From the NCBI GenBank assembly GCA_963826535.1, contig CAWGXL010000010.1:426814-490813 (forward strand): a stretch of DNA of 64,000 bases, read 5' to 3'. Position 1 is the first letter of the stretch. Every line of letters begins with the position of its first letter. This DNA is from an uncultured bacterium (GTDB lineage: Bacteria > Patescibacteriota > Microgenomatia > Levybacterales > UBA12049). Shown here in pieces: positions 41,894 through 63,551 of this stretch. Made by a program: the position numbers and the translations under genes. The notes under the pieces are model-generated. The model was not told where the DNA came from, did no database searches, and saw only the letters and a program-made list of their open reading frames with translations.

Positions 41894-41927
41894 ATGTCGG
41901 CTCTTAAAACCAGGAATTAAACCCCTC

Positions 41928-43945: not shown

Positions 43946-44016
43946 AGCGGGTGAAGAGAATCGAACTCTCGTAACATGCTTGGAAAGCACGTGTTCTGCC
44001 ATTGAACTACACCCGC
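43946..44016 (-). tRNA. tRNA-Gly (anticodon TCC)
   Basis: Reverse complement: GCGGGTG/TA/GTTC-AATGGCA-GAAC/A/CGTGC-TTTCCAA-GCATG/TTAC/GAGAG-TTCGATT-CTCTT/CACCCGC+T. Confidence 0.8.
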
Positions 44017-44110
44017 GTAAGCCTTTCAATTATAACACAATTGTAATACACCTCCTTGAATTTTCACTAGATATAAGTATAATGAAATAGAATTCTGCCC
44101 GGCAGAACGT

Positions 44111-45229: not shown

Positions 45230-45251
45230 AATAAAGTGTATAATATTACAG

Positions 45252-45578: not shown

Positions 45579-45712
45579 AATCCATTACCTACAACCACCA
45601 CTGTTGAATAAAGTTCGCTTTTTAAGTAGAATATCCATACAACAAAGTCTTATAGCTGAAAGCAAATAGCTTAACTCGAAATTTCTGAAAGCTGACAGCC
45701 ATTATCTAAATT

Positions 45713-45795
45713 GCCGCGGTGGTGGAATGGCAGACACAAGGGCCTTAAGAGCCCTCGTCCGCAAGGGCGTGAGCGTTCGACTCGCTCCCGCGGCA
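45713..45795 (+). tRNA. tRNA-Leu (anticodon TAA), type II with long variable arm
   Basis: GCCGCGG/TG/GTG-...-CAC/A/AGGGC-CTTAAGA-GCCCT/CGTCC-GCAA-GGGCG/T/GAGCG-TTCGACT-CGCTC/CCGCGGC+A. Confidence 0.8.
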
Positions 45796-45952
45796 CTGAT
45801 ATTCGCTTACTTCAGCTTCTGGCATTAAGCCAGTTCACTGAAGAGCGCTACATCAGTGCATGCACTTTTAAAACAGAAATACGAATATCAATCCTGTTGG
45901 AGTGCTCTTCAGCGAAGTTTACGAGCTGAAGTAAACGGATAACAGGGCACAT

Positions 45953-46207
45953 ATGTTTTATATTTACATTTTAAAAAGTAAGAAGGATAATAATCTCTAT
46001 ACGGGTTTTTCTGGTAATTTAAAAAAGAGATTACAAGAACACCATAACGGAAATGTAGATTCAACAAAAAATAGAAGACCGTTAGTGCTAATATATTATG
46101 AAGCATATCTAGAAAAAACAAACGCATTATTAAGAGAGAAATTCTTAAAAACAACAAAAGGCAAATTACAGTTAAGAAAACAAATTTTATTAGATAGCGG
46201 GGAATAG
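45953..46207 (+). CDS. GIY-YIG nuclease family small protein
   Basis: YIYILKSKKDNNLYTGFSGNLKKRLQEHHNG...RRPLVLIYYE is the URI/GIY-YIG core. The last ~10 nt overlap tRNA-Pro. Confidence 0.8.
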   Translation: MFYIYILKSKKDNNLYTGFSGNLKKRLQEHHNGNVDSTKNRRPLVLIYYEAYLEKTNALLREKFLKTTKGKLQLRKQILLDSGE

Positions 46208-46271
46208 CTCAGTTGGCTAGAGCGCGCGGTTTGGGACCGTGAGGCCGGAGGTTCAAGTCCTCTTTCCCCGA
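46198..46271 (+). tRNA. tRNA-Pro (anticodon TGG)
   Basis: CGGGGAA/TA/GCTC-AGTTGGCTA-GAGC/G/CGCGG-TTTGGGA-CCGTG/AGGCC/GGAGG-TTCAAGT-CCTCT/TTCCCCG+A. Confidence 0.8.
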
Positions 46272-46470
46272 CACTGATTAGACTGAGGCAATACTTGCTT
46301 CACTAGGAATAATATCTTATCTTCATTTAAAATAACCTATAGCATTGCAAGTACAAAATAAAAATGCTATAATCAATCTCACAAGGACAATTTATCTGCT
46401 TTCTGCCTCTAAAAGAAGAAGCTTAATGATTTTTCGAAGCTAATTTTCAATTTTCCTTCAAGACTATCTT

Positions 46471-47265
46471 ATGAAAAAACTTATAATCGATAACTATATT
46501 TTCTTCCTTTTGCCCTTTTTCGCAGCGTATTTTGCCGCATTGTATTTAGTACTTAGTTTGCAATTTTTTTACGGTGATGCGCTATCAAGGTCTTTCCACG
46601 CTTACGCGGTCTTTTTTGCCAATGAACCTAAATTTGCGAATATAGGATTTGTTTGGCCACCGTTTCCAACGCTTTTAGCTTTGCCCTTGACACTGATTAA
46701 GCCACTTAATCTATTTGGTTTTTCAGGAAATTTATTAAGTGCTGTTTTCCTGGGCATTACAAGTTTGTTTCTTAATAAGATTTTTATGTTTTTTAATATC
46801 TCTCTTTTTACGAGAATTGCATTAATGCTCCTTTTTATTTTTAACCCAATGATGCTTTTTTATGGAGCAAATGGAATGTCTGAAATGATCGGTATTTGTT
46901 TTTTAGTAGCAACTTTATTTTATTTCCTATCATATCTCAAATCCGGGGGTATCGGATATCTTATTGCTACGAGCCTCGCGACCTCACTTGCGGTAATGAC
47001 TAGGTATGAGATGGCCGCGCTTATACCGGTAATTATTTTGCTATTAGTCGTAATTAGGATAAACAGGTCCAAGTGGGAGGGTAAAAATAAAAAAAGCTTG
47101 ATCGAGCGGGATTTGTTGCTTTATGGAGCCCCGATTGCATTTACCCTGGCTTTATGGGTATTTGCGAATTGGGCTATTATGCACAACCCGTTTTACTTCA
47201 TGACAAGTGTCTATTCTAATGTTTCCCAAGCTGGTATTCTTCTAGAAAATTCGGAGTACTATTGA
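46471..47265 (+). CDS. Polytopic membrane protein (N-terminal part of possibly split gene)
   Basis: 264 aa, about 8 TM helices. Confidence 0.35.
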   Translation: MKKLIIDNYIFFLLPFFAAYFAALYLVLSLQFFYGDALSRSFHAYAVFFANEPKFANIGFVWPPFPTLLALPLTLIKPLNLFGFSGNLLSAVFLGITSLFLNKIFMFFNISLFTRIALMLLFIFNPMMLFYGANGMSEMIGICFLVATLFYFLSYLKSGGIGYLIATSLATSLAVMTRYEMAALIPVIILLLVVIRINRSKWEGKNKKSLIERDLLLYGAPIAFTLALWVFANWAIMHNPFYFMTSVYSNVSQAGILLENSEYY

Positions 47266-47343
47266 AGAATCCATAATAATATTACTTCATCCATATTATA
47301 TGTAGGACATCGAGTTGTAATTCTTTTTCCAGCGTTTATTATT

Positions 47344-48042
47344 TTGTTGGCAGTAGTATTGACGAAAGTTTTAAGAAAACATAATTGGATCCTTACTTCT
47401 GCAATACTTGCTTTACCGTTTTCAATTTTATTTTTTCATGTATTTTTACTATATAATGGGCAATCCTATGGATGGTTACGATTTTTTATTTACATCATCC
47501 CCGCTTCGTATATCTTGAGCGCTCTTATCATTTCGTACTATATGAAAAGTAGATATTATAAAATTATTGTCGGTCTTGTTTTAACACTTAATCTTTTTTC
47601 TTCTTATAGTACTTATCTTTCGATGTCTGATCCAAGATTTGGAGTGGAGGAATACAGGCTTGTTAATGCCATAACTACACAAAACCAGGAGTTGTTGGAT
47701 CATGACTCATACGTCGAGGACTTAACGATTGCAGACTATTTAACAAATAATATAACTACAGGCAAAGTCATAGTTGATGATTTTACTGGTTTCCCAATTA
47801 TTTATTTGAGCGGCAAACCTGAATTATTTATCGAAACAATAGATAAGGATTTTGAGCAAACACTTAAAAATGTTACTAACGATAAGCGTGTTCATTATAT
47901 CCTTGTCCCCAAACCAGAAGGAACAAGAACTTTAGATGCAATAAATAGAATGTATCCAACCATGTTTGATAACGGCGCGAACATTGCGGATCTTGTTATG
48001 GATTTTGGAAAGTGGAGATTATATAAAAAAATAAATACATAA
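47344..48042 (+). CDS. Membrane protein with C-terminal soluble domain (possible continuation of 46471-47265)
   Basis: Three or four TM helices then a globular region. The 78-nt gap from the upstream ORF is in a different frame. Confidence 0.3.
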   Translation: MLAVVLTKVLRKHNWILTSAILALPFSILFFHVFLLYNGQSYGWLRFFIYIIPASYILSALIISYYMKSRYYKIIVGLVLTLNLFSSYSTYLSMSDPRFGVEEYRLVNAITTQNQELLDHDSYVEDLTIADYLTNNITTGKVIVDDFTGFPIIYLSGKPELFIETIDKDFEQTLKNVTNDKRVHYILVPKPEGTRTLDAINRMYPTMFDNGANIADLVMDFGKWRLYKKINT

Positions 48043-48233
48043 GTGTAATTATTTAATGTTAAGGCACTTCTGATCCGCCTTGTGGTTCCATATCATCGTT
48101 TTATCGAATCAAACTATAATTTGTAGTATCAAGGGTATTTCTTCAAACTTTGTACTATCCATATGTTTTATAATAGAATTTACTAGTGGAGCTAAAAGTT
48201 TAAGACTAATCGCTTCCATTCGGCCTACATTCT

Positions 48234-49163
48234 ATGATCGTTAATTTATTTATTTTCGCCATCTCCCTTTTTCTCGTCATAAAAGGCGCGACAATAGCTT
48301 CAAAATATGCAGCTCGACTGGCAGAAAGTTTCAAATTGCCCAAGTATACAGTCGGCTTTATCGTTATCGCGGTCATCTCAATACTACCCGAGACGTTTAT
48401 TGCAATCAACTCCGCACTTGCGGGTGTGCCATCCTTCGGTCTCGGCATGTTGTTCGGCTCCAACATTGCGGACTTGACCCTCGTTTTCGCGATCATTGTA
48501 ATGTTTGCAGGCAGAGGGATAAAAATACAAAGCAAGGTTTTGAAAAATAACCAGGCCTATCCACTTTGGCTACTTTTGCCGATTGCTTTAGGACTTGACG
48601 GCCATTATTCCCGAGTTGACGCAGTGATATTAATAATCATCGGTGCTGTATTTTATTACCTGGCCTTCAAAAATAGCGTTGTCAGCACGACATCCTCAAA
48701 CCATAGCAACAACCGCCTCAAAAACATAAGTCTATTGCTTATTGGCATGGTCATTTTGTTAACAGGTTCTCATTTCACAGTTACGTCCGCATCATCCCTG
48801 GCTAAAGCATTGCAAGTGAGTCCGATCTTGATCGGTATGCTTATTGTAGGCTTAGGCACAACCATGCCTGAACTATTCTTTTCACTCAAATCGGTAAAAA
48901 AACAAGACGATGCACTGGCAGTAGGGGACATACTTGGAACAGTACTCGCTGACGCCACCATAGTAGTCGGAGTCATAGCTCTGATCAGTCCATTCTACTT
49001 TCCCCAAAAAATTATTTATATCACTGGTTTGTTCATGCTAGGTGCATCAATTATTCTGTTACAATTCATGCGTTCAGACCGAACGCTGACCAAAACTGAA
49101 GCTTATTTACTCTTCCTTTATTGGCTTATTTTCGTTCTGGTAGAATTAGTAGCAAATCAATAA
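48234..49163 (+). CDS. Ca2+/Na+ antiporter (CaCA family, YrbG-like)
   Basis: Two alpha-repeats GSNIADLTLVFAII and GTTMPELFFSL with 5+5 TM topology. Confidence 0.75.
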   Translation: MIVNLFIFAISLFLVIKGATIASKYAARLAESFKLPKYTVGFIVIAVISILPETFIAINSALAGVPSFGLGMLFGSNIADLTLVFAIIVMFAGRGIKIQSKVLKNNQAYPLWLLLPIALGLDGHYSRVDAVILIIIGAVFYYLAFKNSVVSTTSSNHSNNRLKNISLLLIGMVILLTGSHFTVTSASSLAKALQVSPILIGMLIVGLGTTMPELFFSLKSVKKQDDALAVGDILGTVLADATIVVGVIALISPFYFPQKIIYITGLFMLGASIILLQFMRSDRTLTKTEAYLLFLYWLIFVLVELVANQ

Positions 49164-49180
49164 TCAACAGTATTAAATCT

Positions 49181-50140
49181 CTATCCCCCCGTATATTCCG
49201 GAGGTTCGATGCCCAAACTACTTAATGAATAATCCAGAAGCTCTTTCATCTCCTTCCTCCTGCTCTCGCTATTCAAAATAATCCCTATAATTCTATGTCC
49301 TCCATAGTCCAAATATGTCACCAGACAAAATCCTGCTTCAGGCGTATATCCGGTCTTTACCCCTTTCACCCCCGGATACGTTGTAAGCAAATTAGTTTCG
49401 TTAAAAAGGCCATATCCTTTGTGACCTGAAGTCGCCAGAACATCATAGCTCGGACTGGAGACAATTTTTTCAAACAGTGGAAAATTTTCAATCGCGTACC
49501 GTGTAATAACCAACAAATCATAAGCTGTGGTATATTGCTCCCCATCTCCCTGCAAGCCTGAGGGATTACTGAATCGAGTATCTTTAAGCCCCAGAGCAAG
49601 TGCTTTGTCATTCATTGCCTTTATAAAACCCTCGCGACTGCCGTCTATATAGTTTCTGGCCAAAACCTCTGCCGCATCGTTACCTGATGGCAGCAATAGA
49701 CCATACAACAATTCCTCTCTGGACAATATTTCACCCGTTCCAAGCCCCATTATGTTTTCTCCGACCAAATCTACCCCCAAAACCTCGTAGTTGGCCTCTT
49801 TGCCTTTTTCAAGAGCGATAATTGCTGTCATAACTTTACTCAAAGACGCCATAGGTCTCCGAATTCTTGGATTTTTCTCAAAGAGCACCTTTTCTGTACT
49901 CAAGTCATAAACCAAAACGGAGTCGGCAGTAATCTCCGGCATACTATTTTCGCTGCCATAAGCCTCTGTCCAGAAAGGCAACCAAAGATCAAGCAAGGTT
50001 ACCTGTTTATTTTTCTCAAGAGTCAAAAAATCAGGCAGCGGGGAAATCAATGAAGCGTCATCTCGCAATCGCAATTCAAAAAACCAAAACAAACCTGTAA
50101 AGATAACCGACAGAACCACAATAGATAAAAAATGCTTCAT
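49181..50140 (-). CDS. D-alanyl-D-alanine carboxypeptidase (PBP5/DacA-type serine peptidase)
   Basis: SXXK ASLSKVMT, SXN LLPSGNDAA, KTG GVKTGYTPEAG. N-terminal signal anchor. Confidence 0.85.
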   Translation of the reverse strand: MKHFLSIVVLSVIFTGLFWFFELRLRDDASLISPLPDFLTLEKNKQVTLLDLWLPFWTEAYGSENSMPEITADSVLVYDLSTEKVLFEKNPRIRRPMASLSKVMTAIIALEKGKEANYEVLGVDLVGENIMGLGTGEILSREELLYGLLLPSGNDAAEVLARNYIDGSREGFIKAMNDKALALGLKDTRFSNPSGLQGDGEQYTTAYDLLVITRYAIENFPLFEKIVSSPSYDVLATSGHKGYGLFNETNLLTTYPGVKGVKTGYTPEAGFCLVTYLDYGGHRIIGIILNSESRRKEMKELLDYSLSSLGIEPPEYTGG

Positions 50141-50307
50141 AATTGAATATCTTGAGGAATAGCTTCTATCCTAGTAGATTTTACCGACTTTTACAAGAGT
50201 TTAAATAATCTGATCTATTTAGATATTATTCGACATAATTGACAAAACCTCATCAATAATCTATTCTAAATAGAGTAATAACTACACAAGAAAGGGGGTG
50301 AGTAAAA

Positions 50308-50892
50308 ATGTTAATAAAATTAATCTTAAGTCTTATTATAATAGTCGGAGTCGGCGCAGCAGCATTCTCGGCAACTAGTGCGCTTTTATCCGATACTGCT
50401 ATATTGGCAGCTAATACTTTTAGTACAGGCACTTTTGATTTGCAAATTTCTAAAAGTACTTCCAGTAATCCTACTACATTCGCATCAGATTCAATTACCG
50501 GTTTTACTGATACTTTTCTACCGGGACAAAGCAAATCAAAAACATTTTGGTTAAAAAATAACAGCACGGATATAGATTTCGCGACAGCAGCGCAATCATC
50601 CAGTATTAGTGGGGAAATTAGCCCAGGTAGTGTAACAGTTGCATTTACACCTGTTAGCAACGATGACACTTCCGTTGTAGGAACAGCAACATCACACACA
50701 TTAACTGAATGGGGATCAGTATCTGCTTTAGACAGCAATATTGGTCATGGCGGAAAACAAAGATATAGGATGGAAGTTACACTTGATCCAAGCGTAACAA
50801 CAACTGGCTCTATTAACTTTGATTTCGTCTTTACGGGCACAGAAGTCGTACCTGCACCAACGGTTACGCCTACTGTGACACCAACACCGTAA
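50308..50892 (+). CDS. SipW-cognate (TasA/camelysin-like) secreted fibre protein candidate
   Basis: SD AAAGGGGGTGA. N-terminal LIIIVGVGAAAFSATSALLSDTAILAANTFSTGTFDL matches the SipW-cognate signal region (A.FSDTE..NTF.AGT.DL). Thr/Pro-rich C-terminus. Confidence 0.6.
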   Translation: MLIKLILSLIIIVGVGAAAFSATSALLSDTAILAANTFSTGTFDLQISKSTSSNPTTFASDSITGFTDTFLPGQSKSKTFWLKNNSTDIDFATAAQSSSISGEISPGSVTVAFTPVSNDDTSVVGTATSHTLTEWGSVSALDSNIGHGGKQRYRMEVTLDPSVTTTGSINFDFVFTGTEVVPAPTVTPTVTPTP

Positions 50893-50986
50893 TAGGATGG
50901 GTTTAAATAGTGCAAAACTCAACCTTTATATGGTCAAGAATTCACCCCCTCTCTCGCAAAAAACGGGAGAGGGGAAGACTAAAAAA

Positions 50987-51958
50987 ATGAAAAATGTAAT
51001 TAAAAATTTTGTGATTATTTTCGTTTTACTTATTGGTTTTACTTTATTTGTGTTATCTAACCAGACACTCGGATGGAGAGCCTTTATTGTTACCTCCGCC
51101 TCAATGGAACCCGCTGTCGGTACCGGGTCCTTAGTAGTAACACAATACAAACATCCTAATACATTATCTAAAAACGACATTATTACCTTTATCCCTCCAA
51201 TAAAGACACACGCATTTATCACCCATCGTATTAGTAAAGTATCTCAAAATAAAAGTCTAACGACTTTCAAAACAAAAGGTGATAATAACAAAAACGAAGA
51301 CAAATGGACGCTCGCAGGCGGGGGAGTAGTTGGAAAAGTCACCTACATAATTCCATATCTTGGATTTTTTATGTCCTTTGTCCAAAGCAAAATAGGCATC
51401 CTCCTTTTCATCCTCCTTCCGGCTGTATACATCATTATTGATGAAATATTTAATATTGCAAAAACCATCAAGCACCACAAAAAGAAAATAATCCCGGCAA
51501 ATGAAATATCAACTACTGCATTATTAATTTTTTTAAGCTCCATATTTTTCCCGCTTCAACCGGCCTACGCGCTCCTGTCTGACTCTGCAGGTCTGACCAA
51601 TAATACTTTTACAGTAAATTCTATTACCCCAACCGTTACACCTTTCGAATTCCCTAGCTGTAAGGATCCGCACGGAACGATTATCTCATCATACAAGACA
51701 GGAAGGCACGAAATTATCGGTGTGGGGTTGCTTATTGGTAGCGATACTGTATATCAGTTAACTGAAGGTTCCAAAGAAAAAGTACTGCAGTGCTTCTGTC
51801 CTGAATCAGGACCAGGTATTCAAACAAATTGGATTAAGACAACAGAAATAGAAAGGTTTAAATTTGACGGATGGCCGCATTCTATCACCTCCGGCCTTAG
51901 TTGGAATCTAGACGACAACCCGTATGTAGCACAAAATATTGAATATACTTGCAATTAA
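50987..51958 (+). CDS. Signal peptidase I, SipW/archaeal type, fused to a C-terminal SipW-cognate-like domain
   Basis: VTSASMEPAVGTGS (catalytic Ser box SxSMEP). Conserved His region ITHRISKV. After a second TM: PLQPAYALLSDSAGLTNNTFTVNSI, a cognate-signal-like motif, then ~150 aa Cys-containing domain. Confidence 0.65.
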   Translation: MKNVIKNFVIIFVLLIGFTLFVLSNQTLGWRAFIVTSASMEPAVGTGSLVVTQYKHPNTLSKNDIITFIPPIKTHAFITHRISKVSQNKSLTTFKTKGDNNKNEDKWTLAGGGVVGKVTYIIPYLGFFMSFVQSKIGILLFILLPAVYIIIDEIFNIAKTIKHHKKKIIPANEISTTALLIFLSSIFFPLQPAYALLSDSAGLTNNTFTVNSITPTVTPFEFPSCKDPHGTIISSYKTGRHEIIGVGLLIGSDTVYQLTEGSKEKVLQCFCPESGPGIQTNWIKTTEIERFKFDGWPHSITSGLSWNLDDNPYVAQNIEYTCN

Positions 51959-51965
51959 GCGGAAA

Positions 51966-52523
51966 CTATTCTTTTACAGCCAATGTTGCATCACTCTTAT
52001 AGACTGCGACTGCGACCATTCTTTGCGAATCCAAAAACCCTGTGCAAGTATACAAAGTTATCCTTTTATCCTTTGAGGGAGCCAAAATACTCGACTGTGT
52101 ATAAGGAACAACTGAGGTATATTGAACAATAAACTTTTTTCTTGTTTTATCTTCATACTCTACATCAATATCCATATCCGGCCGGATATTGACCAATGGT
52201 CCGAACAAGCTCGCCCAATCATGGGCATAAATTATGCTGTTACCTGTATTTCCGGGAATTGGTGAAGAAAGTAGATAGGATGCACCTTTAGTTGTAGTTT
52301 GCCACTCACTTTTGACAACTTTAGCCGGAAAGATAGGTAGATCAATACCCAAATCCCGAATAGTAATCCTAACCGGCGGATTAACCACCGCTTCTTCCTT
52401 ATAATTTCCAACATAATTCTTAAAAGCCAACCTATTCGGGTTATTCCGCTCCCATATTAGAAAAACTGCAGCAATAAAACAGACAATTCCAAAAAAAAGC
52501 AATAAATATGCAATCCTTTTCAT
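51966..52523 (-). CDS. Sortase (transpeptidase) 2
   Basis: N-terminal TM. His in SIIYAHDWAS. Catalytic TLXTC: RITLYTCTG. Confidence 0.7.
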   Translation of the reverse strand: MKRIAYLLLFFGIVCFIAAVFLIWERNNPNRLAFKNYVGNYKEEAVVNPPVRITIRDLGIDLPIFPAKVVKSEWQTTTKGASYLLSSPIPGNTGNSIIYAHDWASLFGPLVNIRPDMDIDVEYEDKTRKKFIVQYTSVVPYTQSSILAPSKDKRITLYTCTGFLDSQRMVAVAVYKSDATLAVKE

Positions 52524-52561
52524 AATTACTATATTAATAATATCGAGTTGAGTTTCAAATT

Positions 52562-53269
52562 TTACGACTTGCTTAATTTCTTTAAAACAAGCCCGGAGAT
52601 AAGGGAGATTGCTCCTGCAATAATGACCGAATAGATAAATGCTGCGTTTCCTGTGCTTGCAAGTGATTCATGCGCACCCCCAACTTGACCGGTAACAAGT
52701 GCTGGTGTTGCAGTTGGACCCGGCCCTGGTGTGCTTGTAGGCCCTGGTGTAGGCGTGCTAGTAGGCCCTGTAGTCGCTGTAGGGGTCGGTGTAGGCGTCA
52801 CAACCACTTCTCCGCAGTCTTTCACTGTATACACTTTAGCATCCATTGCGTATGCGTAATAAGGTTTTTCCTCAAGATAACGATTTCCTCGTATTAGATC
52901 TGTTTGCACCCTACATGAATTACTGTCACCTTCAAGAGAAATCGTTTCAGTTTTACCCGACGCTACTTTTACGGTTTTATGAGTAATGTATACCTGGCTA
53001 TCAATAAAACTAGGTGAATTTTCTTCTTGAGGAGCCTCATACTTTACCAATGTTGCGTCGTATTCACAAGCTTTGTTCTTTGAAAAGTTAGTAACTGTAG
53101 CATTATTTTTATCCAACAGCTGCCCTTGCAAATCTACATCTATATCACCATCACATACCTCGGTTGTTTGATTTTCCTCTGTAGTAGCAAGTACAACAGA
53201 AGCAGACAAGGTCAAACAAGTAGTGACCAAAATGAGCGGTAGAGTAATATTAAGTAAAATAGTTTTCAT
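52562..53269 (-). CDS. LAXTG-type cell-wall-anchored Thr/Pro-rich surface protein
   Basis: Signal peptide. TPTPTPTATTGPTSTPTPGPTSTPGPGPTATP stalk. Sorting signal LASTG, then hydrophobic segment, then KKLSKS. Confidence 0.7.
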   Translation of the reverse strand: MKTILLNITLPLILVTTCLTLSASVVLATTEENQTTEVCDGDIDVDLQGQLLDKNNATVTNFSKNKACEYDATLVKYEAPQEENSPSFIDSQVYITHKTVKVASGKTETISLEGDSNSCRVQTDLIRGNRYLEEKPYYAYAMDAKVYTVKDCGEVVVTPTPTPTATTGPTSTPTPGPTSTPGPGPTATPALVTGQVGGAHESLASTGNAAFIYSVIIAGAISLISGLVLKKLSKS

Positions 53270-53346
53270 AGAAAAAGACCTATATTAAATGTAAAGAGGA
53301 TTATAGCATACCAAAATAGGTATGTCAATAGTATATACTATATACC

Positions 53347-53691
53347 TTAAAGTTCCTGTAGAATTACTATAGCGTCACCTAAATTATCGTAATATTCAAC
53401 TTTAAGAATGTGCACGCCCTCGGTAAGTGTGACTGTTGGTGTATATGTTGTAATATCATGGTCAGTCCAATCATCTACGAGTAATTGGTCATCAACCCAA
53501 AATCGAACACCGTCATTTGATTGAAGGCTAAAAGAATAGTCACCAGCCGCGAATTGTTTCTCCTTAATCCATCGGGCTGAAAACTGATCTACATTTACTA
53601 ATGGATCCGGCGAGCCTGCACCCCAATTAAAATTAATTTGTGCGTCCTGACGAGTCAGAACTGGAGCGCCCGTCAATGCGATATTATTGAA
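53347..53691 (-). CDS. PA14 domain protein, C-terminal fragment truncated at the compositional junction
   Basis: NIALTGAPVLTRQDAQINFNWGAGSPDP...DQFSARW...GDYSFSLQSNDGVRFWVDDQLLVDDW is a canonical PA14 fold. The apparent N-terminus MLEPGLLHF is antisense of the fumC start region, so the true 5' end is missing. Confidence 0.6.
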   Translation of the reverse strand, partial: FNNIALTGAPVLTRQDAQINFNWGAGSPDPLVNVDQFSARWIKEKQFAAGDYSFSLQSNDGVRFWVDDQLLVDDWTDHDITTYTPTVTLTEGVHILKVEYYDNLGDAIVILQEL

Positions 53692-55114
53692 ATGCAGCAA
53701 ACCAGGCTCGAGCACGACTCGCTCGGGCCGGTGCCGGTCCCGCGGACCGGCTGTGGGGCGCGCAGACCGAGCGGTCGCGCACCCATTTCGCGATCGGCGA
53801 CCCCGACGTCTACCGGTGGCCGCGCGGCGGTGATTCGCGCGTTCGGCTGGTCAAGGCCGCCGCCGCCGATGCGAACCTGCAGCTCGGGGTGATCGACGCC
53901 GACGTCGCCGCGCTCATCGCGCAGGCGTCGCTGGAAGTGGCCGCCGGCGAGTGGGACGCGAGTTCCCGCTCGGCGTGTTCCAGACCGGCTCGGGCACGCA
54001 CACGCAACATGAACGCCAACGAGGTGATCGCCAACCGCGCCAATCAGCTCGCGCGGCGGCGCGCTCGGCAGCGTATCGGCCCGTGCACCCCAACGACCAC
54101 GTGAACCGCGGGCAGTCGTCGAACGACGTGTTCCCGGCCGTCATGCACCTGGCGACGCTCGAGGCGCTCGAACGGCTCGAGCCGGCGGTCGCCGCGCTGC
54201 GCGGCCGCGCTCGTGCGAGTCACGCCGCGCGCTGGCACGACCTGCCGATGCTGGGCCGCACGCACCTGCAGGACGCCACGCCGATCATGCTCGGCGACGT
54301 CGTGGCCAGCTGGACGGCGCAGATCGATCAGCGCCTGGACGCGGCTGGCGCAGGCGCGGCGCGGGCTGCACGCGCTGCCGCTCGGCGGCACTGCCGTCGG
54401 CACAGGGCTCAACGCGCCATCGCGACTTCGGGCGCGCTGGCGATCGCCGCCTGGCCGACGCGACCGGCTATCCGCTGCGCCAGGCACCGAACCTGCCCGC
54501 GGCCCTCGCCGCGCACGACGCCATGGCGACGGTGAGCGCCGCGCTGCGGGCCTGGCCGGGGCGCTCTTCAAGATGGCCAACGACATCCGGCTTACGCGTT
54601 CGGGGCCGCGCGCGGGCCTGGGCGAGCTGCGGCTGCCGGCCAACGAGCCGGGCTCGTCGATCATGCCGGGCAAGGTGAACCCCAGCCAGTGCGAGGCGCT
54701 GACGATGGTGGCGGTGCACGTCTTCGGCTGCGACGCCGCCGTGGCGTGGGCCAACGCCCAGGGTCCGCTGCAGCTGAACGTCTACAAGCCCGTGATCCTC
54801 CACAACGTGCTCGAACCGGCGCGGCTGCTGCGCGACGCGTGACGTGGCGTTCACACGCTACTGCGCTCGACGGGCTCGAGCCGGGCCGGCGCGCATCGAG
54901 GCGCATCTGCAGGCCTCGCTGATGCTCGTGACCGCGCTCGTGCCGCACATCGGCTACGACCGCGCCGCGAAGTCGCGCTGGCGCCCATCGCGAAGGACGC
55001 GCGCTGCGGGAGGCGGCGGTGGACTCGGGCGTGGTGAGCGCGGACAACTTCGACGGGTGGGTGCGCCCGGCGGAGATGGCGCGTCCCCATGGCCCGAAAG
55101 TGGCCGGGGACTAG
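53692..55114 (+). pseudogene. fumC: Fumarate hydratase class II (fumC-like), reading frame broken by at least 4 frameshifts
   Basis: [85 protein letters not shown] and LVTALVPHIGYDRAAK are found across frames 1, 0, 2, 0, 1. Confidence 0.7.
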
Positions 55115-55136
55115 CTCTGCAGTGATTTCCGGCGGC

Positions 55137-55430
55137 CTACTGGCCAGTGTAGGACATCATCCCCAGACCGATCAGCCAGGCGGCCAGCCAGATCTGGGCC
55201 ACGGCAACGAAGAAGTCCTTGCGCGTCTGGCGCACCGGATCGTCTTCGTGCGTGTCGTGGTGCGTGTCGTGTGACATCAGTGGTTCCCCCAGGGCGAGTG
55301 ACGTGTCGCTTATGAGCACAGGGTGTGCCAATTCAGAACGCGCGAAAAACTGGGATTTCGGCGTGTATTGTCTCCCCCAGTGGGAACTTGTCGTAATACC
55401 CCCGTGAAACGGGCACCTCACTTCTTCCAT
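55137..55430 (-). CDS. Small His-rich membrane hypothetical protein
   Basis: MSHDTHHDTHEDDPVRQTRKDFFVAVAQIWLAAWLIGLGMMSY; one TM. Weak. Confidence 0.25.
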   Translation of the reverse strand: MEEVRCPFHGGITTSSHWGRQYTPKSQFFARSELAHPVLISDTSLALGEPLMSHDTHHDTHEDDPVRQTRKDFFVAVAQIWLAAWLIGLGMMSYTGQ

Positions 55431-55794
55431 GTGGCCTGGATGGGCTGGCGTTAATGGAACAGCTGTAGCCCGGGAGCCAATCGTCCGCCTGGGGGTTCAT
55501 GACGTCCGCCGGTCGCCGGTCGTTCGCGCTGCTGTGGTGCGCCTTCTTCGTGAACCTGACGGTCGCGTCGCCGCCTGGTCAGGGTCCAGGCCTAGGCAGT
55601 GCCGCACCGGGATCGCCAGGGCGGAGAGCGCGTCGAGACTTTGCGGCCCCCTCTTCCAGGCGCGCTCAACGGCGCGGCCGCCGTGAGCGTCGTCGACTGA
55701 CAGCGGCTCGGCCTCTTGACAGATATCTGTTACAGATATATCTGTCACGGCTACGTCATGGAGTCCCGCACGCCTACGTCTTCTTCCCGTCCTG

Positions 55795-56253
55795 TTGCTT
55801 GCCGTTCCACTCCTGAGCCTTGCGGATGCGGGCGCTCAGGCCAAACCCGACTTCAGTGGCGAGTGGGTATTGAATCGCGCCGCCAGTCCCCTGCAAGGCG
55901 AATCGGCGGCCGTAGAGAGCAGCGTGATTCGCATCGACCATCGCGACCCCGCGTTCACGTTCAAGCGCACGTTCGTGGTCAAAGGCCAATCGTTGGACGC
56001 CTGGGTATGTGATTCAGACGGACGGCCGGGAAGTGACGTCGAGTGCTCGGGGGCCTGTCGTGCGCGATCGCGAATGGAATGGCAGGGCGCGACGTTGTTG
56101 CTCAGCGCATTCATCACCGGCCCGCGCGGCGAGGTGAGCAACATCGTGCGCTACGAACTGCTGGACGGCGGGCGGGTGCTGCGGGCGGTCGAAGAACCTC
56201 GGTGGTGCCGCTCCGGGTCCACCACAACGTCTCGATCTACGAACGGAAAGTGA
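55795..56253 (+). CDS. Secreted hypothetical protein (PDFSGEW N-terminal motif); start uncertain, possible upstream frameshift
   Basis: Signal-like LLPVLLLAVPLLSLADAGAQA then KPDFSGEWVLNR. A candidate ATG at 55755 is out of frame. Confidence 0.35.
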   Translation: MLAVPLLSLADAGAQAKPDFSGEWVLNRAASPLQGESAAVESSVIRIDHRDPAFTFKRTFVVKGQSLDAWVCDSDGRPGSDVECSGACRARSRMEWQGATLLLSAFITGPRGEVSNIVRYELLDGGRVLRAVEEPRWCRSGSTTTSRSTNGK

Positions 56254-56570
56254 CGGCGCTGACTCCGGCGGTCTTTCACGTCCTGTTGGCCCTGGTCGTC
56301 CGGGGATCGGCACGGCTACGGCATCATGCAGGACATCGCGGAGCATACCGGCGGCGAGCTGAAAATGGGCAGCCGAGCACATTATACTGGCACGATCCAG
56401 CGACTGATGGACCAGGGGCTCGTTCGCGAAGTGGAAATCGCCGCGGCCGCAGACGGCTCCGCGACGAACGGGCGCCGGCACTACCGGCTGACTGCCTGCC
56501 GGGCGGCAGGCGCTGCAAGCCGAGGTGCAGCGGCTGGAGCACCTGGTCAACGTGGCCCGCGGCGTAAGCC
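56250..56570 (+). pseudogene. PadR-family transcriptional regulator, 2 frameshifts
   Basis: VFHVLLALVVRG..YGIMQDIAEHTGGELKMG...GTIQRLMDQGLVREVE...GRRHYRLTA...AEVQRLEHLVN is split between two frames. Confidence 0.55.
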
Positions 56571-57314
56571 GCGTGTCAGGTGCGAAGGCCTGACTGTCGA
56601 CTCCGCTGCCGCTCAGCGTGCGCCTCTATTGCGGTCTTCTGCGGCTTTACCCGGCCGAGTTCCGGCGGTCGTTTATGCCGCCGATATCGGCCTGCCAATG
56701 TCATCGACGGATATGGCGCGGCGCGTCACGCGTCAGGAACAGTGCGTTCGCGATTTCTCTTACTGCGCGGCAACTGCTGACCTCCCGATAACACTATGCC
56801 AGGGAAGCGCTTGCCGGCAATCGGGACCGCAATGGGCGTGGCCTTCACGATTGCGGCGGCCGCAGCTGCTCTGGGGCGGCACGGTCTGGATGCTGGCGCT
56901 GGAATGGCCGGATGGGCCGGCGCGATCGTTTACTCTATCTGCAAGTTGGCGGTGTTCTCTTGGAATACTGGGCCGTCGCAGCCTGCGTGGGCGTCGTGCT
57001 GGGTCAACCGCCGCGCGCCGATCCGCCTGAATCTGGAGCAGATGAGTTAAGAGGGCCTCACTGGCACGCGGATTGAAGCCTCAGCGGTGGAGGACTATCC
57101 AATGGAGCCAACCCCACCGCACGCGACGCCGAGGCCAGAACGAGATCCCATCGACGTCGATCCGGATCTTGCGACTGCCAGGAACGACCAGACCGATCAG
57201 GACGTGGACACGGCGGGAACCGAGGCCGATGAGCCGGCCGTGGGCTCGGCGCTCGACCGTGGCGTCGAACGAAACGAGCGTCGCCGACCGGAGCCGGATC
57301 GCCCGTAACCCTGT

Positions 57315-57851
57315 ATGAGGTCGGAGGAAATCATGAAGAACGAGCTGGCCGAGTTTTACGCGCTGATCGAGGAGCTCGACACCGCGATGATGACGACACG
57401 TCAGCGTGACGGCCATCTGCGATCGCGGGCGATGGCGAATCAGAAGCCCGCTGAGGGTGCCGACCTGTGGTTCGTGACGCTGGAGCAGAGTCCCAAACTG
57501 GCCGACCTGGCCTGGGACCCGCACGTCAACTTGTCCTATTATCGCGACCGGAACCGCGAATGGGTTTCTGTCTCTGGTACCGCCGAGATCTCGCGGGACC
57601 GCGACAAGATTCGTGAACTGTACGCGACCGATTGGCGGATCTGGTTCCCCCAGGAGGGTGACCCCAGGCACGGGACCGCCGACGATCCCCGCATGGTCCT
57701 GATAGGCGTCACGGTGCATGCCGCCGAGTATCTGAAAGCAGATGCGGCCGCCCGTCGTCCTGTTCGAGGTAGTCAAAGGCTGGCTGACCGGCGCCATACG
57801 GAGCTCGGCACGATGCACCATCTCGTCGAGCCCCGGCGGCGCGAAGCGTAG
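57315..57851 (+). pseudogene. General stress protein 26 / PNPOx-like FMN-binding family protein, C-terminal frameshift
   Basis: MKNELAEFYALIEELDTAMMTTRQRDGHLRSRAMA...LWFVTLEQSPKLADLAWDPHVNLSYYRDRNREWVSVSGTAEISRDRDKIRELY. The C-terminal VVLFEVVKGWLTG continues in another frame. Confidence 0.55.
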
Positions 57852-57877
57852 CCCCGCGCGCAACGCGCCTCGACCTG

Positions 57878-59307
57878 TCAGGCGGCCTGGTAGTAGTCCT
57901 CGGCGAGCGATGACACGAGGCGCGCCGCCGGCACCTCCGGCGGCGCCGCGATCACCGGGGCGTCCACCACGGCTCTGAGCGCATCGAAGCACGCCGGGTC
58001 CAGCGCCGTGCCGACCTCGCGGCCCATGATGTCGAGCACGCGCTCGACCGGCAGGCCGGCGCGATACGGCCGCGAGCTGCGCAGCGCGTCGAAAATGTCG
58101 GCGACGCACAAGACGCGCGAGCTGGTCGACAGCGCCGATTCGGACACGCCGCGGTGATATCCCTTGCCGTCCAGACGCTCGTGGTGTGACGAGGCGGACA
58201 GGGCGAATGGCTGGAAGCACGGCACGCGGGTCAGGATCTCGTGCGTGAACCGCGGGTGCTTGCGCATGGCCGCGAATTCCGGGTCGGTCAGCTTGCCGGG
58301 CTTGTCCAGGATCAGGTTCGACACTCCCAGCTTGCCCAGATCGTGGAGCAGCGCCGACGCGGCGCAGCTCGCGCAGGGCGACCCGCCCGTAGCCAAGCCG
58401 CTCGCCGATCGCCACCGCGGTGGCGGCCACGCCGCTCGAATGCTGATACGTCCACGGCGACTTCGCGTCGATCACCCTGGCGAAGGCCTCGGCCACACGG
58501 TCGATGTCGGCCTCGCCCGCCACGATCACGCGATCGGCCGGCTCCACGGCGCGCAGCGTGTCAGCGTGGTCCGTGCCGCCCAGCCGGCGCCAGAACCCGA
58601 ATCCGACTCCATCGACAGCCAGCGCGTCCACGAGGTCGGGATCGAACCACGTGCCGCGCCGCGCCTCGCGCCATGTCGTAGGCGGTCGTGACCCCGTAGG
58701 TGGTGAAGAAGACCTCGACGGTCTGCGCCAGGCCCAGCACGCGCGCCAGCACCGGAATCTCGTCGCGCTTCAACGAGTACGGCTGGCCGTGCCCGTCCCA
58801 GTGCTCGTCGAGCGCCCGGATCGCCGCCGCGGTGGCATCCTCCAACCGAAGCAGCCTCGCGATGTCGGCGCCTCGCTCGCAGCGCGTCCGCACCACCTCG
58901 CGCGGCTCCTTCCGGCCCGTGCGCAAGGATGGCCAGGAGGCGCCAGACGCGCTTGAGCACAGGCTGGCCAGGCGCCGCATTGCGCGCGACGAGCCGGAAC
59001 GCCTCGAGGGCGTGCGCCCAGTTGATGTGCTTGATCGCGTTCTTGACGTCGTGATCGTTGGCGCCGAAGAGCGCCGCGAACCGGGCGGCGTTGCTGGAGC
59101 AGCCCAGGTCCTTCATCAGCAGCGCGTAGAAGAGCGCGGAGCGATCGGCGTACGGGAGGTTGATCTCCTGCGCCAGCCGCATCCCGATCAGGCAGCTGCG
59201 AACCGCATGGCCGGGCCGCTGGCCTTCGGTGAGGTCGAGGGCGTACGACAGTCCGGACAGCACCTCGGACAGACGCATGCCGCCGGTCGCCGGCACATCG
59301 TGGTTCA
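57878..59307 (-). pseudogene. HD-GYP domain phosphodiesterase (c-di-GMP), frameshifted
   Basis: N-terminus MNHDVPATGGMRLSEVLSGLSYALDLTEGQ. HD-GYP core LLHDLGKLGV...HHERLDGKGYHRG...VADIFDALRSSRPYR. Spread over 3 frames. Confidence 0.6.
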
Positions 59308-59379
59308 TCGATACAGTTGTCGGTGCCGGTGAGGCGCCTCTGCACCAAGGCGCGGTGTGCAGTTCTGGGCGGCGCCGCG

Positions 59380-60078
59380 TCAAAGAACGGTCAGGGCACC
59401 GAGGAGCAGGCGGTTCTTCGGCGTGATGTCCCGGGGAATGGTCTGCGTCCAGACGCGATAGCCCAGCGCCTCGAGCCGCGTGGCGCGGCCGACGTCGATC
59501 GCCAGCGCCGGGTCCAGCCAGCCGGTCAGATGCACGCCGTCGAGAGAGCTGTCGTCGTGACAGCACGGCAGCACGGCCACGCGTGCACGAGCGGCGCTGG
59601 CGAGGGACAACACCTCGTCGGTCAATGAGCCGCACGCGTGGCACGAGACCACGAGGTCGCCCGGCATGACCGCGGCCTCCTGCAGTCGTCCCGGAACGAA
59701 GGTCACGCGGCCGGTCAGGCGGGGCCACTCGCGGGCCAGGGCGTCTTGCAGCTTGGCAGCCGACGGAGGCACGACGTCGTCCACGACGATCGCCGACTCC
59801 GACGAGTCGTCCAGCAACAAGAGCGTCTGGGCCAGGAGCCCGTGGCCGCCTGCCAGATCCACGACGCGGCCGCCTCGGAACAAGCGCCTCACGCGCCGGG
59901 CCATCTCCCAGCTTTCGAACAGCTCCTTGCGCGGCAGGCAGCCAGCGGCACACACCGCCCGCCCCAACCGATCGAACAGCGACTCGCTGGGGAAGCGACC
60001 CAGATCGTGCGCCGTCAGCCTGTTGCCCGAGGCCCGATTGAACGAATGCAGTCCGGCTGCAGTTTGTGACTTGTGCAT
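59380..60078 (-). CDS. Rnl2-family methyltransferase, SAM-dependent (intact)
   Basis: Glycine-rich VVDLAGGHGLLAQ. Paired CHACGSLTD...VLPCCHDD cysteine motifs. Confidence 0.5.
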   Translation of the reverse strand: MHKSQTAAGLHSFNRASGNRLTAHDLGRFPSESLFDRLGRAVCAAGCLPRKELFESWEMARRVRRLFRGGRVVDLAGGHGLLAQTLLLLDDSSESAIVVDDVVPPSAAKLQDALAREWPRLTGRVTFVPGRLQEAAVMPGDLVVSCHACGSLTDEVLSLASAARARVAVLPCCHDDSSLDGVHLTGWLDPALAIDVGRATRLEALGYRVWTQTIPRDITPKNRLLLGALTVL

Positions 60079-60102
60079 TGTGAATTGTGAATTGCCTTCC
60101 CC

Positions 60103-60912
60103 TCACCTCTTCACCGATAGTCCGTACACCTCTATCCGGCCCACGTTCACGAACCCACCCCACCCGTGGCCGCTGCCCGGCAGCAGATCGGCGAACCCGA
60201 TCTCATCGACGCGGCTCAGGTCCGGCACCACCCAGGCCTGACCGCGCGTCACGACCCGCGTGATGTCGAGCGGCAGCCACCGCACGTTGGCGATCGCGAA
60301 CTCGGACTCCACGAAGAGCCCCGAGTTGGCGGACTGTCCCCCGTCGGCGTGGTCGCCCACCAGCCACGTGCCGTCCGCAAGCTTCACCACGGGCCGCACG
60401 ACGTGAAAGCCCGACGTGCGCGTGACCCAGCGGACGCGCGCCGCGCCGGTCAGGTTCACGAAGCTCTCGCGGTGGCGCAGCGTCGCGGCCACCGGCGACT
60501 GGCACACGCCGGTCCACAGATTCGGCGGATCGGACGGCTGGCCCGCCACCACCTTCGCCGGCGGCGGGTTCTGGTTGTATCCAGCCAGCTGGATGCACGA
60601 CGGCCCGTCCCAGTCCACCGGTATCGACCCGGTCGGCGGGTTCTTCAGGTAGGCGGGGACGTTCTTCGCGTTCGGATCGTAGAGCCGCAGCTCGAGTTGG
60701 GGATTGGTCACCGCGGCGGCCGTCACGCCGGCCTCCGGGCGGAATCCAGTCGAGGCGTCGAACGGGCGCGACTGTCGCCACGGCTCGCGGAAGAACAGCG
60801 GCGGCCCCGGCGACGGCTCGAGAAACTTCGGTGCGGGCGCCTGCCCCTGCACCATCCCGCCGATCACCGCCACGAACGACGACGCAATCAGAAGGCACCG
60901 CATTTTCGTCAT
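60103..60912 (-). CDS. Secreted hypothetical protein
   Basis: Signal peptide MTKMRCLLIASSFVAVIGGMVQG. 270 aa. Confidence 0.4.
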   Translation of the reverse strand: MTKMRCLLIASSFVAVIGGMVQGQAPAPKFLEPSPGPPLFFREPWRQSRPFDASTGFRPEAGVTAAAVTNPQLELRLYDPNAKNVPAYLKNPPTGSIPVDWDGPSCIQLAGYNQNPPPAKVVAGQPSDPPNLWTGVCQSPVAATLRHRESFVNLTGAARVRWVTRTSGFHVVRPVVKLADGTWLVGDHADGGQSANSGLFVESEFAIANVRWLPLDITRVVTRGQAWVVPDLSRVDEIGFADLLPGSGHGWGGFVNVGRIEVYGLSVKR

Positions 60913-60935
60913 GGCGTGCAGCATATACTGCCGCG

Positions 60936-61739
60936 ATGCGACTCGCGCTCGCGGCACTCCTCGTGTCCAGCCTGGCCGCCGGCGTGTCGGCACAGTGGCT
61001 TCGCTATCCGTCAGCCGGCGTGCCCAAAGGACCAGACGGCAAGCCCAACATGGCGGCTCCGGCGCCGCGCACCGCCAGCGGTCAACCCGACTTCTCGGGC
61101 GTGTGGCTGGTGGACGGATTCGGGCCGCCAGGCGGTGAGGGCACGGGGCCCACGCCCAGGACCGTTTTCTTCGACGTCGCGCACGGCCTCGGCGGCCAGC
61201 GCCCGCCGTATCTGCCCTGGGCGGCCAAGCTGCGAGACGACCGGCGGGAACAGGAGGCCAAGGACAACCCGGACGCGCGCTGCCTGCCGATTGGCCCGCT
61301 GCAGATGCTGGCGCACCCGCTGCCGAAGAAGATCATCCAGGTGCCCGGCCTGCTGCTGATCCTGCACGAGCGGAACATGGAGTTCCGGCAGATCTTCCTC
61401 GATGGCCGTCCGCTGCCGGCCGACCAGCAACCCTCGTGGTATGGCTACTCGACGGCGCGGTGGGAGAAAGACACGCTGGTGGTCGAAACGTCGGGGCTTC
61501 GTGACGGCCTGTGGGCCGACTTCTACGGCAGCCCGCTGACCGACGCAGCGCGGATGACCGAGCGCTTCCGCCGCCCGAACTTCGGCACGCTGCTCGTGCA
61601 GGTGACCATCGACGATCCCAAGGCGTACTCGAAGCCGTGGACCGTCGACGTCAACCAGCACTACGGCATCGACACGGATCTCCTGGAGTACGCGTGTCTC
61701 GAGAATGAAAAAGACGTGCCTAGGCTCGTAGGGAAATAG
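60936..61739 (+). CDS. Secreted hypothetical protein (PDFSGVW motif; distant paralog of 55795-56253)
   Basis: Signal peptide MRLALAALLVSSLAAGVSA then QPDFSGVWLVDG. Divergent from 60103-60912 with a 23-nt spacer. Confidence 0.45.
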   Translation: MRLALAALLVSSLAAGVSAQWLRYPSAGVPKGPDGKPNMAAPAPRTASGQPDFSGVWLVDGFGPPGGEGTGPTPRTVFFDVAHGLGGQRPPYLPWAAKLRDDRREQEAKDNPDARCLPIGPLQMLAHPLPKKIIQVPGLLLILHERNMEFRQIFLDGRPLPADQQPSWYGYSTARWEKDTLVVETSGLRDGLWADFYGSPLTDAARMTERFRRPNFGTLLVQVTIDDPKAYSKPWTVDVNQHYGIDTDLLEYACLENEKDVPRLVGK

Positions 61740-61791
61740 CCGAGGCTCAGTTCCGCGTTCTTGGCAGGCCGAAGACCGGAGACTGAAGACT

Positions 61792-63548
61792 TCACATCCG
61801 CTCGAACCGCTTCTCGAGCTCGTGGCGCGTCAGCCGCAGCATCACTGGCCGGCCGTGCGGGCACACGGTCGAATAGGCGGTGCGGCGCACGCCGTCCAGG
61901 ATGTGCAGCATCTTCTCGTGGGTCAGCGGGTAGTTGGCCTTCACCGCGGCGTGGCAGGCCATCGTCGCGGCGATGCGCTTCACGGCGTCCACCACCGCGC
62001 GGCCGCGGTCCAGCTGTTCCAGGTCCTCGGCCAGCTCGCGCAGCGCGGCGCGGCTCTCCTCGCGGCTCAGGAGCGCCGGGCAGGCGGAGACGCGCACCGC
62101 GTCGGCGCCGAAGTCCTCGACCTCGAAGCCCAGGCGCGCCAGGTCCTCGGCGTGCGCCAGCAGCGCCTGGTGGCCCTCAGGCGCGACCTCCACGAGCATC
62201 GGTTCCAGCAGCCGCTGGCTTTCCAGCGCGCCTGACGTCAGCCGCTCGGTAATCCGCTCGAACAGCATCCGCTCGTGCGCCACGTGCTGGTCGATGATGG
62301 CGATGCCCTCTTCGTCCACGGCCACGATGAAGGTGTCGCGGAACTGGCCCAGCGGCATCAGCGTGCCGGGTGGGCCGGAGGCACTCGCAGCGCCGTCGCC
62401 CGCGCCGATACCGGCCGCCCCCTCGACGTGCTCCCGGAGCAGGACTGGAGGCGTCCAGCGGCTCGGAAAGACCGTCGGGTAGGGTGTCGGCAGGGTCATC
62501 GGCAGCGCCAACGGCGCGCCGTGCGGCCGCATCGGACATCGCCCCCGCGATGGTCAGCCCCGGCACCGGCGCGGCGCTCAAGGCATCGGCCACGGCCATG
62601 CGCACGCTGCTGTGGACGAACGACTGGTCCCGGAACCGCACCTCGGCCTTCGTGGGGTGCACGTTCACATCCACCGCAGTCGAGCGGCATCTCGATGAAG
62701 AGGTGCACCTCGGGGCTGCGCTCCTTGATCGAGGCCGCGCTGTAGGCATCGCCGATGGCATGCGCGATCGTCTTGTCGCGCACCATGCGGCGGTTGACGA
62801 ACACGTGCTGCGGGCCTCGCGGCACCGTGGACGCCAGCGCGGCCACCATGCCGTAGATCGCCGTGCCGCCGGTGCGGCGCTCCACCGGCACGAGATCGGT
62901 GCGGTGGCCGTAGACCTGGAACAGGCGGTCGCCCAGCGTCGCGGCCGGCGGGTATTCGAGACGGCGGCGTCCCGGCGCGACCAGCGCGAATCCGACGTCC
63001 ACGTAGCAGAGCGCCATCTGCGTCACGACGCGCGTGACCTGGGCCATCTCGGCCGCGTCCGACTTCAGGAACTTGCGCCGGGCCGGCAGGTTGTAGAAGA
63101 GGTCGCGCACCTCGACCGAGGTGCCCACGGGAGCGCCGGCGTCGCGAACCGAAGCCGGTGCGCCTCCGTCCACAGTGACCTCGACGCCGCCGGTGGCGTC
63201 GCGCGGCCGCGTGCGCAGCACGAAGTGCGACACGGAGGCGACGGCCGGAAGCGCCTCGCCGCGAAAACCCAGCGTGGCGATGCGGCCGAGGTCGTCCGAC
63301 GTCCGGATCTTGCTGGTGGCGTGGCGCTCCACGGCCAGCCGCGCGTCGTCGGGGTCCATGCCTTCCCCGTCGTCCTCGACGCGGATCAGGCGCTTGCCGC
63401 CCTGCTCCACGGTGATCACGATGCGCCGCGCGCCGGCATCGACGGCGTTCTCCACCAGCTCCTTGATGACCGACGCCGGCCGCTCCACCACTTCGCCGGC
63501 GGCAATCTGATCGGCCAGGTCCGCCGGGAGACGGACGATCTTCCCCAT
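61792..63548 (-). pseudogene. mutL: DNA mismatch repair protein MutL, about 2 frameshifts
   Basis: N-terminus MGKIVRLPADLADQIAAGEVVERPASVIKELVENAVDAGA (GHKL ATPase). Mid VDVNVHPTKAEVRF lies in another frame. C-terminus GQFRDTFIVAVDEEGIAIIDQHVAHERMLFE. Confidence 0.7.
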
Positions 63549-63551
63549 TCG

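Follow-up and report, generated by a model that had tools for sequence, protein, structure and literature searches.

Patescibacterial and acidobacterial DNA abut within one deposited contig, most likely through a misjoin in long-read or hybrid assembly that cuts a PA14-domain gene

How does DNA with the composition and the genes of two bacterial phyla come to lie on one contig, and is the point at which the two meet a product of biology or of assembly? The question is raised by a stretch of 64,000 nucleotides (hereafter the window, meaning the whole of the DNA analysed) from contig CAWGXL010000010.1 of assembly GCA_963826535.1, filed under an uncultured bacterium of the Patescibacteriota, the candidate phyla radiation (CPR). 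Close to position 53,692 of the window, a low-GC segment that carries a minus-strand gene for a PA14-domain protein abuts a high-GC segment that opens with fumC, the gene for a class II fumarate hydratase. An earlier note, made from the letters of the DNA alone, had preferred an assembly chimera or an artificial concatenation to a recent horizontal transfer. Our analysis leads us to regard the contig as very probably chimeric; it most likely arose in a long-read or hybrid assembly, either from a long read that was itself chimeric or through extension across a false overlap.

The compositional switch is both large and abrupt. In 1-kb bins, the fraction of guanine plus cytosine (GC) is 0.28-0.44 on the left (1-53,000) and 0.64-0.74 on the right (54,001-64,000), and the step between the means of a single-change-point model (0.365 and 0.689) takes only about 20 nt, with 40-nt windows standing at 0.45 at 53,680-53,719 and at 0.73-0.85 from 53,700 onward. 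By likelihood, the last left base is 53,701, with a 2-lnL (log-likelihood) interval of 53,691-53,711. Within the left side, canonical tetranucleotide distances (x10^-3) between 10-kb chunks are 11-31; from these chunks to the right side they are 116-133, or 4-10 times as great, while the right side lies at 23-25 from two Acidobacteriota loci. A compositional difference of this size far exceeds chance or ordinary variation within a genome. The abrupt GC switch near 53,692 described in the earlier note is thus borne out (from 36.5% to 68.9%), and the tetranucleotide comparison that it proposed separates the two sides just as clearly. Homology locates the join more finely than composition does: the left homology stops at the phenylalanine codon 53,689-53,691 and the right homology begins at 53,690-53,692, leaving at most 2-3 nt that could be assigned to either side. 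The two sides meet with no spacer, adapter, or run of N between them, and they share no microhomology of useful length.

On the left, the break falls within a gene. The minus-strand open reading frame (ORF) at 53,347-53,715 matches the Pfam PA14 family (E 7e-16, profile positions 3-126 of 147), and the deposited record has only a 109-aa PA14 product (P0121), which begins at an internal TTG at 53,676. The best 150 relatives are proteins of 437-4,575 aa with 3-15 PA14 repeats. Because all of these are large and several of them end in a PA14 domain, the 114-aa remnant in the window is understood as the 3' end of a bigger gene; a search for the full gene returned only the 109-aa product of the record and one partial protein at 52%. 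The reading of the PA14 protein is secure through FNNIALTGAPV, the F of which is encoded by the last left codon, and the residues PGLLH that follow beyond 53,691 are the antisense of fumC. The loss of the 5' part of the gene at the join, as originally proposed, is therefore upheld by the Pfam match, the large relatives, and the out-of-register residues past 53,691. A PA14 domain starts with GLxGEYF (compare WLGEYFAN in the relative P0122); we considered whether the PGLL of the window could be such a GL start overlapping fumC, which would amount to microhomology, and rejected this, since PGLL is shifted by two residues relative to the motif.

On the right, fumC reads away from the join from an ATG at 53,692 and matches a solved FumC structure (1vdk) over residues 16-463, the matching pieces being spread over all three frames. 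Its relatives are up to 83% identical, and the named ones among them (65-67%) belong to Acidobacteriota. The claim that the fumC ATG sits exactly at the switch stands in part: there is an ATG at 53,692, and it aligns with the start methionine of one relative (P0003, MTAMREEHD). However, in P0002, P0004, and P0006 (MRRQPQSNEHTRLEHD), with whose motif the TRLEHDSLGPVPVP of the window is identical, the position of the ATG aligns with internal AAT-GAG codons if a one-base insertion is allowed, and insertions of this kind are common on the right side. The ATG at 53,692 may not be the true start of fumC, its place at the switch being possibly fortuitous, and the gene may be either full length or about eight codons short at its 5' end. 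In both cases, its native upstream region at least is gone. Its 3' flank aligns at 80-89% with positions 11,454-11,700 of locus L002, where that locus has a 46-aa gene.

When the two sides are searched separately, they give different phyla, Patescibacteria on the left with TypA and Vicinamibacterales-like Acidobacteriota on the right with MutL, in agreement with the contrast drawn at the outset. The relatives of the left-side TypA/BipA are 76-86% identical to it, and the named ones come from a Patescibacteria group bacterium, Candidatus Saccharimonadales, and Candidatus Levyibacteriota. The gene content of the left side likewise fits the CPR, with glycosyltransferases, a sortase, a DD-carboxypeptidase, and many large ORFs without a Pfam family, six of which (399-786 aa) have no match at E <= 0.001. 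Such large ORFs are typical of CPR genomes. On the right, the relatives of MutL among the species representatives of GTDB are found in metagenome-assembled genomes (MAGs) of Vicinamibacterales and other Acidobacteriota (best 68%), and a soil-type MutL from the Joint Genome Institute (JGI; P0128) is 85.7% identical in a frameshift-aware alignment. The five kinds of gene first noticed on this side (fumC, HD-GYP, PadR, MutL, and CorA) were all recovered, in an Acidobacteriota-like order. The right side is a native piece of acidobacterial chromosome, not a mobile element, because corA, mutL, and the next gene are collinear with the Vicinamibacterales locus L004, with one extra gene in the window, and the same holds for fumC with its small downstream gene against L002. 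The window corA is 77% identical to L004 1,548-1,949, and the gene at L004 4,014-4,820, which directly follows mutL there, has its counterpart in the window. It is separated from mutL by the extra gene, which encodes a secreted protein (60,936-61,739) and is absent from this place in L004.

Some database records encountered in these searches look mislabelled or contaminated in their own right. A TypA that is 76% identical to the CPR TypA (P0208) is named "Candidatus Acidoferrales bacterium," and Vicinamibacterales-type MutL loci (L009 and L048) lie within MAGs named Bifidobacteriaceae (CAYHHH010000069) and Acidimicrobiia (VFZL01000026).

What is new here is that the quality of the sequence shifts at the same base as its composition. 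Frameshifts were counted by frameshift-aware protein-to-DNA alignment of fumC, mutL, and TypA; a Viterbi segmentation by the phase of GC at third codon positions (GC3) proved too coarse for such counts, as it missed closely spaced compensating shifts. Pfam searches of the frameshifted right-side genes used stitched or X-masked peptides. Over the 10.3 kb of the right side, single-base frameshifts number at least 22 in total; they are listed by gene in the table below together with the left-side control. The coding phase of the HD-domain gene runs -0, -1, -2, -0, the Pfam domains of MutL fall on two separate ORFs, and a four-way DNA alignment shows the indels of fumC in the window sequence only. 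Of the 53.7 kb on the left, 88% is taken up by 60 non-overlapping ORFs, each at least 80 aa long (median 240 aa). Homopolymers do not account for the errors of the right side, since runs of 6 nt or more are absent from it but number 201 on the left.

Nor do the indels have the look of age. Natural decay would add substitutions, and none in excess are seen: the frame-corrected FumC is 80-84% identical to P0001-P0003, which are themselves 69-85% identical to one another, and it keeps the catalytic GSSxMPxKxN motif of the active-site loop. The frameshifts, excess substitutions, and motif loss that together mark a pseudogene are not found in combination. We accordingly rejected pseudogene decay of a real insert on the grounds of the absent substitution load, the intact FumC motif, and the closeness of MutL to P0128. 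The most fitting interpretation of the indels is that they are consensus errors, which would stem from very low read depth in long-read or other indel-prone sequencing. Since one molecule has one depth, a jump in quality at the very point where composition and taxonomy switch points to two populations of molecules of very different abundance and thereby to a misjoin.

The region 54,840-57,864 stands somewhat apart from the rest of the right side. It lacks codon periodicity (the GC3-phase segmentation called it noncoding), has a lower GC of 0.64-0.66, and contains the frameshifted PadR-like gene and about 2 kb without a Pfam match in any frame. It could hold very dense errors or truly different sequence.

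Marks of integration were sought at the one boundary that lies within the window. No direct or inverted repeats involve the junction, and no integrase, transposase, or recombinase family of Pfam is found in the ORFs of 44,060-53,715, in the right-side genes, or in any frame of 55,115-57,340. Six tRNAs were called on the left side by ARAGORN and five by Rfam, which finds tRNAs only and no rRNA there; the tRNA closest to the join, tRNA-Pro at 46,198-46,272, is 7.4 kb away. Repeat search, ARAGORN, Rfam, and Pfam are thus at one with the initial observation that no integrase, tRNA-end duplication, or repeat marks the boundary. A genomic island would resemble this locus in being a compositionally foreign block with an abrupt start that interrupts a resident gene. 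The locus differs in that no integrase near the boundary, tRNA target, or direct repeats of the att type are seen at this boundary, core genes stand in donor order, and the quality of the block differs from that of the host. In place of accessory or mobile cargo, the block has fumC, mutL, and corA in synteny with Acidobacteriota MAG loci. What the locus does display are the features expected of an assembly chimera, namely, an abrupt change in composition, a switch in taxonomy at the level of genes, and a gene-cutting break without a signature of recombination.

The join was already present when the sequence was deposited. By exact look-ups, four left-side proteins, the PA14 product P0121, and the C-terminal ORF of the right-side MutL were each found once only, on one contig of 494,050 bp present in NCBI and ENA, and the TypA of the window (P0129) is on a contig of that length as well. 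An artefact of window building is ruled out, since both sides share this one record. As the join lies inside a deposited contig, neither window building nor the concatenation of bin contigs made it. The original preference for a chimera over a recent transfer accordingly agrees with every test that we ran, while the artificial concatenation offered beside it, if understood as one of bin contigs, falls away. The exact 45-mer just left of the join had no match in the genome or metagenome contig collections, and exact-protein look-ups of three left-side genes and of P0121, made to find an independent copy, gave no match either.

The course of events that best accounts for these observations is one in which DNA of two organisms from the same, probably soil, sample was wrongly joined. 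One would be an abundant Patescibacteria (CPR) genome, cleanly assembled with a consensus drawn from many reads; the other would be a rare Vicinamibacterales-like acidobacterium with a consensus drawn from one or a few reads, and hence about one indel per 100 nt in places. The likeliest route would be a chimeric long read or a wrong extension through read overlap in a long-read or hybrid metagenome assembly. Both the low depth of the right side and the type of sequencing and assembly are matters that we infer. Chimeric long reads arise when two fragments are ligated during library preparation or when two molecules are read as one. They share with this locus a blunt join of unrelated DNA for which microhomology is not required, arbitrary breaks in genes, and the coverage of one side by few reads. 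An error of ligation or overlap is favored over an unsplit two-molecule read because no adapter remnant lies between the two parts.

Artefacts of this kind are on record. For the assemblers metaFlye, metaMDBG, and hifiasm-meta, contigs that fuse different phyla have been described, recognizable by abrupt shifts in GC, coverage, and taxonomy, and long-read metagenome assemblies are also known to contain unsupported indels that disrupt ORFs (bioRxiv 10.1101/2025.04.22.649783). The chimeras described there resemble the present one in the shift of GC and taxonomy at one point, the merging of phyla, and the ORF-damaging indels. However, they are defined by a coverage shift and read clipping, whereas depth is deduced here from the change in error rate only. 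A further likeness, in that the genes of two distant lineages stand in one genome record, is to the contamination of MAGs. This usually takes the form of a foreign contig in a bin, and programs such as GUNC or CheckM pick it up. In the present case, by contrast, the fusion lies within a contig, and filtering at the level of contigs would not remove the foreign DNA.

Several points weigh against a misjoin and have to be set beside the evidence for it. The window ends inside the high-GC part, and any second boundary lies outside the view. The low depth of the right side is read from the error rate alone, and high-GC DNA can polish worse for technical reasons at equal depth. Moreover, the density of frameshifts on the right is uneven: it reaches about 1 per 95 nt in fumC, with several more in the PadR and HD-GYP genes, yet about 59.3-62.5 kb is clean and the four genes at 59.4-61.7 kb have none, which suggests patchy depth or patchy polishing. 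Finally, should fumC natively start at the ATG at 53,692, a random break exactly there would be a coincidence of about 0.3-0.5%; this chance is comparable to that of the alternative, in which a break within an N-terminal extension happened to leave an ATG. Read as biology, the junction would be a very recent, real integration in which at least 10 kb of chromosomal DNA of acidobacterial origin entered the CPR genome by illegitimate recombination into the PA14 gene, the DNA having been taken up, for example, from a neighboring or host cell. CPR bacteria are found attached to other cells, and DNA-uptake machinery is encoded by many of them; truncation of the PA14 gene would likewise follow from such an insertion, and both the clean join without spacer or adapter and the presence of the two sides on one deposited contig are in keeping with it. 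Yet a single molecule should have one depth and one quality, and here the error rate jumps at the join. Furthermore, the composition is wholly unameliorated; the cargo consists of housekeeping genes that keep their native synteny and are accompanied by no mobility gene, att-like repeat, or tRNA; the native upstream region of fumC did not come along with the gene; and the frameshifts come without the extra substitutions of pseudogene decay. We regard an integration of this kind as distinctly unlikely. The more specific version, in which at least 10 kb passed very recently to a patescibacterial cell from a Vicinamibacterales-like acidobacterium that may have been its host, and the frameshifts reflect nothing but a GC-dependent failure of polishing, strikes us as very unlikely.

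Errors other than a chimeric read or a false overlap could also have joined the two parts. Two bin or scaffold contigs might have been concatenated without an N spacer after assembly, in scaffolding, gap closing, or manual curation. The parts do abut with no overlap and at most 2-3 shared bases, as in plain concatenation, and two levels of quality would follow naturally. Even so, binning by composition or coverage would not pair DNA of 69% GC with a genome of 36% GC, the record treats the sequence as one contig, scaffolders normally insert Ns, of which there are none, and no second join of this sort occurs in the 53.7 kb to the left; a post-assembly join is therefore unlikely in our estimation. 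Short-read metagenome assemblers, too, are known to yield chimeric contigs, and a de Bruijn graph could be misresolved through a k-mer common to both genomes. Here, however, the homologies abut within 3 nt with no shared sequence at the join, and a 1% rate of single-base indels is unlike the Illumina error profile, so that we give this explanation almost no credence. A misjoin that goes back to chimerism or false overlap of long reads thus remains the reading that we favor.

Its relevance is to data quality and database hygiene rather than to biology, the artefact being of a known kind. A public 494-kb contig filed as CPR appears to carry at least 10 kb of fused acidobacterial DNA that is beyond the reach of decontamination at the level of bins. 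Taken at face value, the record would wrongly credit a patescibacterium with a fumarase, MutL, CorA, and an HD-GYP protein, and it could seed false claims of gene transfer between phyla or of tricarboxylic acid cycle enzymes in CPR bacteria. On the practical side, where frameshift density and composition jump together, the coincidence can serve as a proxy for a step in coverage and be checked for without any reads.

Table. Segments, genes, and junction in the 64,000-nt window, with the single-base frameshifts counted in each gene
Feature	Coordinates	Strand	Frameshifts (length)	Basis
Patescibacteria (CPR) genome segment, 36.5% GC, good consensus quality	1..53,691	none		GC profile, ORFs, TypA homology
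Left-side ORFs without a Pfam family	3,121-5,286; 7,022-8,956; 30,070-32,430; 34,853-36,376; 28,622-29,950; 32,573-33,772			
TypA/BipA gene, left-side control	37,797-39,677	-	0 against two relatives of similar distance (1.8 kb)	
Sortase gene	51,966..52,523	-		Pfam Sortase E 6e-16, profile 1-123 of 125 in one stretch
3' fragment of PA14-domain gene, 5' end cut by the join	53,347..53,691	-		Pfam PA14, relatives
Junction	53,689..53,692	none		fumC DNA alignment (three loci), PA14 translation, GC change point
Vicinamibacterales-like (Acidobacteriota) segment, 68.9% GC, poor consensus quality, runs off the window	53,692..64,000	none		MutL homology, tetranucleotides, synteny
fumC (class II fumarate hydratase)	53,692..55,114	+	14-16 against P0001/P0002/P0003 (1.42 kb)	PDB FumC match, frameshift-aware alignment
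Small gene downstream of fumC	55,140..55,260 (end approximate)	-		Conserved with locus L002
PadR-like regulator, split over two frames	56,247..56,520 (end approximate)	+	at least 1	Pfam PadR E 3e-7 on stitched peptide, also on raw frame
Pyridoxamine-5'-phosphate-oxidase-like gene	57,333..57,800 (end approximate)	+		Pfam Pyrid_ox_like E 2e-30
HD-domain gene (HD_5 / HD-GYP type)	57,878..59,308	-	at least 3 (phase changes)	Pfam HD_5 E 2e-24
Methyltransferase-like gene, intact	59,380..60,078	-		Pfam Methyltransf_32 E 5e-9, single ORF
Conserved unknown gene, intact, adjoins mutL in relatives	60,103..60,924	-		74% identical to L004 4,014-4,820
Secreted unknown protein, 267 aa, intact	60,936..61,739	+		Single ORF
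mutL, insertions at ~62,521 and ~62,678	61,792..63,548	-	2 (1.7 kb)	Pfam MutL_C, HATPase_c_3, DNA_mis_repair
corA 3' part, runs off the window	63,552..64,000	-	at least 1 (near 63,950)	Pfam CorA E 5e-32, profile 189-292 of 292

A few further observations concern features away from the join itself. The secreted 267-aa protein encoded between mutL and its usual neighbor has no Pfam family, and its only match (39%) is in locus L017. Among the left-side tRNAs, tRNA-Leu(taa) at 45,713-45,796 is called by ARAGORN and, unlike the other five, is missing from Rfam at the gathering threshold. The sortase gene is intact and appears to form part of a cell-surface locus just left of the join. Indeed, the region 50,308-53,691 resembles a cell-surface assembly locus by motifs recognized by eye. 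It would include a TasA/camelysin-like protein (..SALLSDTAILAANTFSTGTFDL), a signal-peptidase-like protein (SASMEP) with a second ALLSDSAGLTNNTF motif, and a secreted Pro/Thr-rich protein in which a C-terminal LASTG, a transmembrane helix, and KKLSKS would make up a sorting signal of the LAxTG type. In the order of the locus, this Pro/Thr-rich protein is followed by the PA14 fragment.

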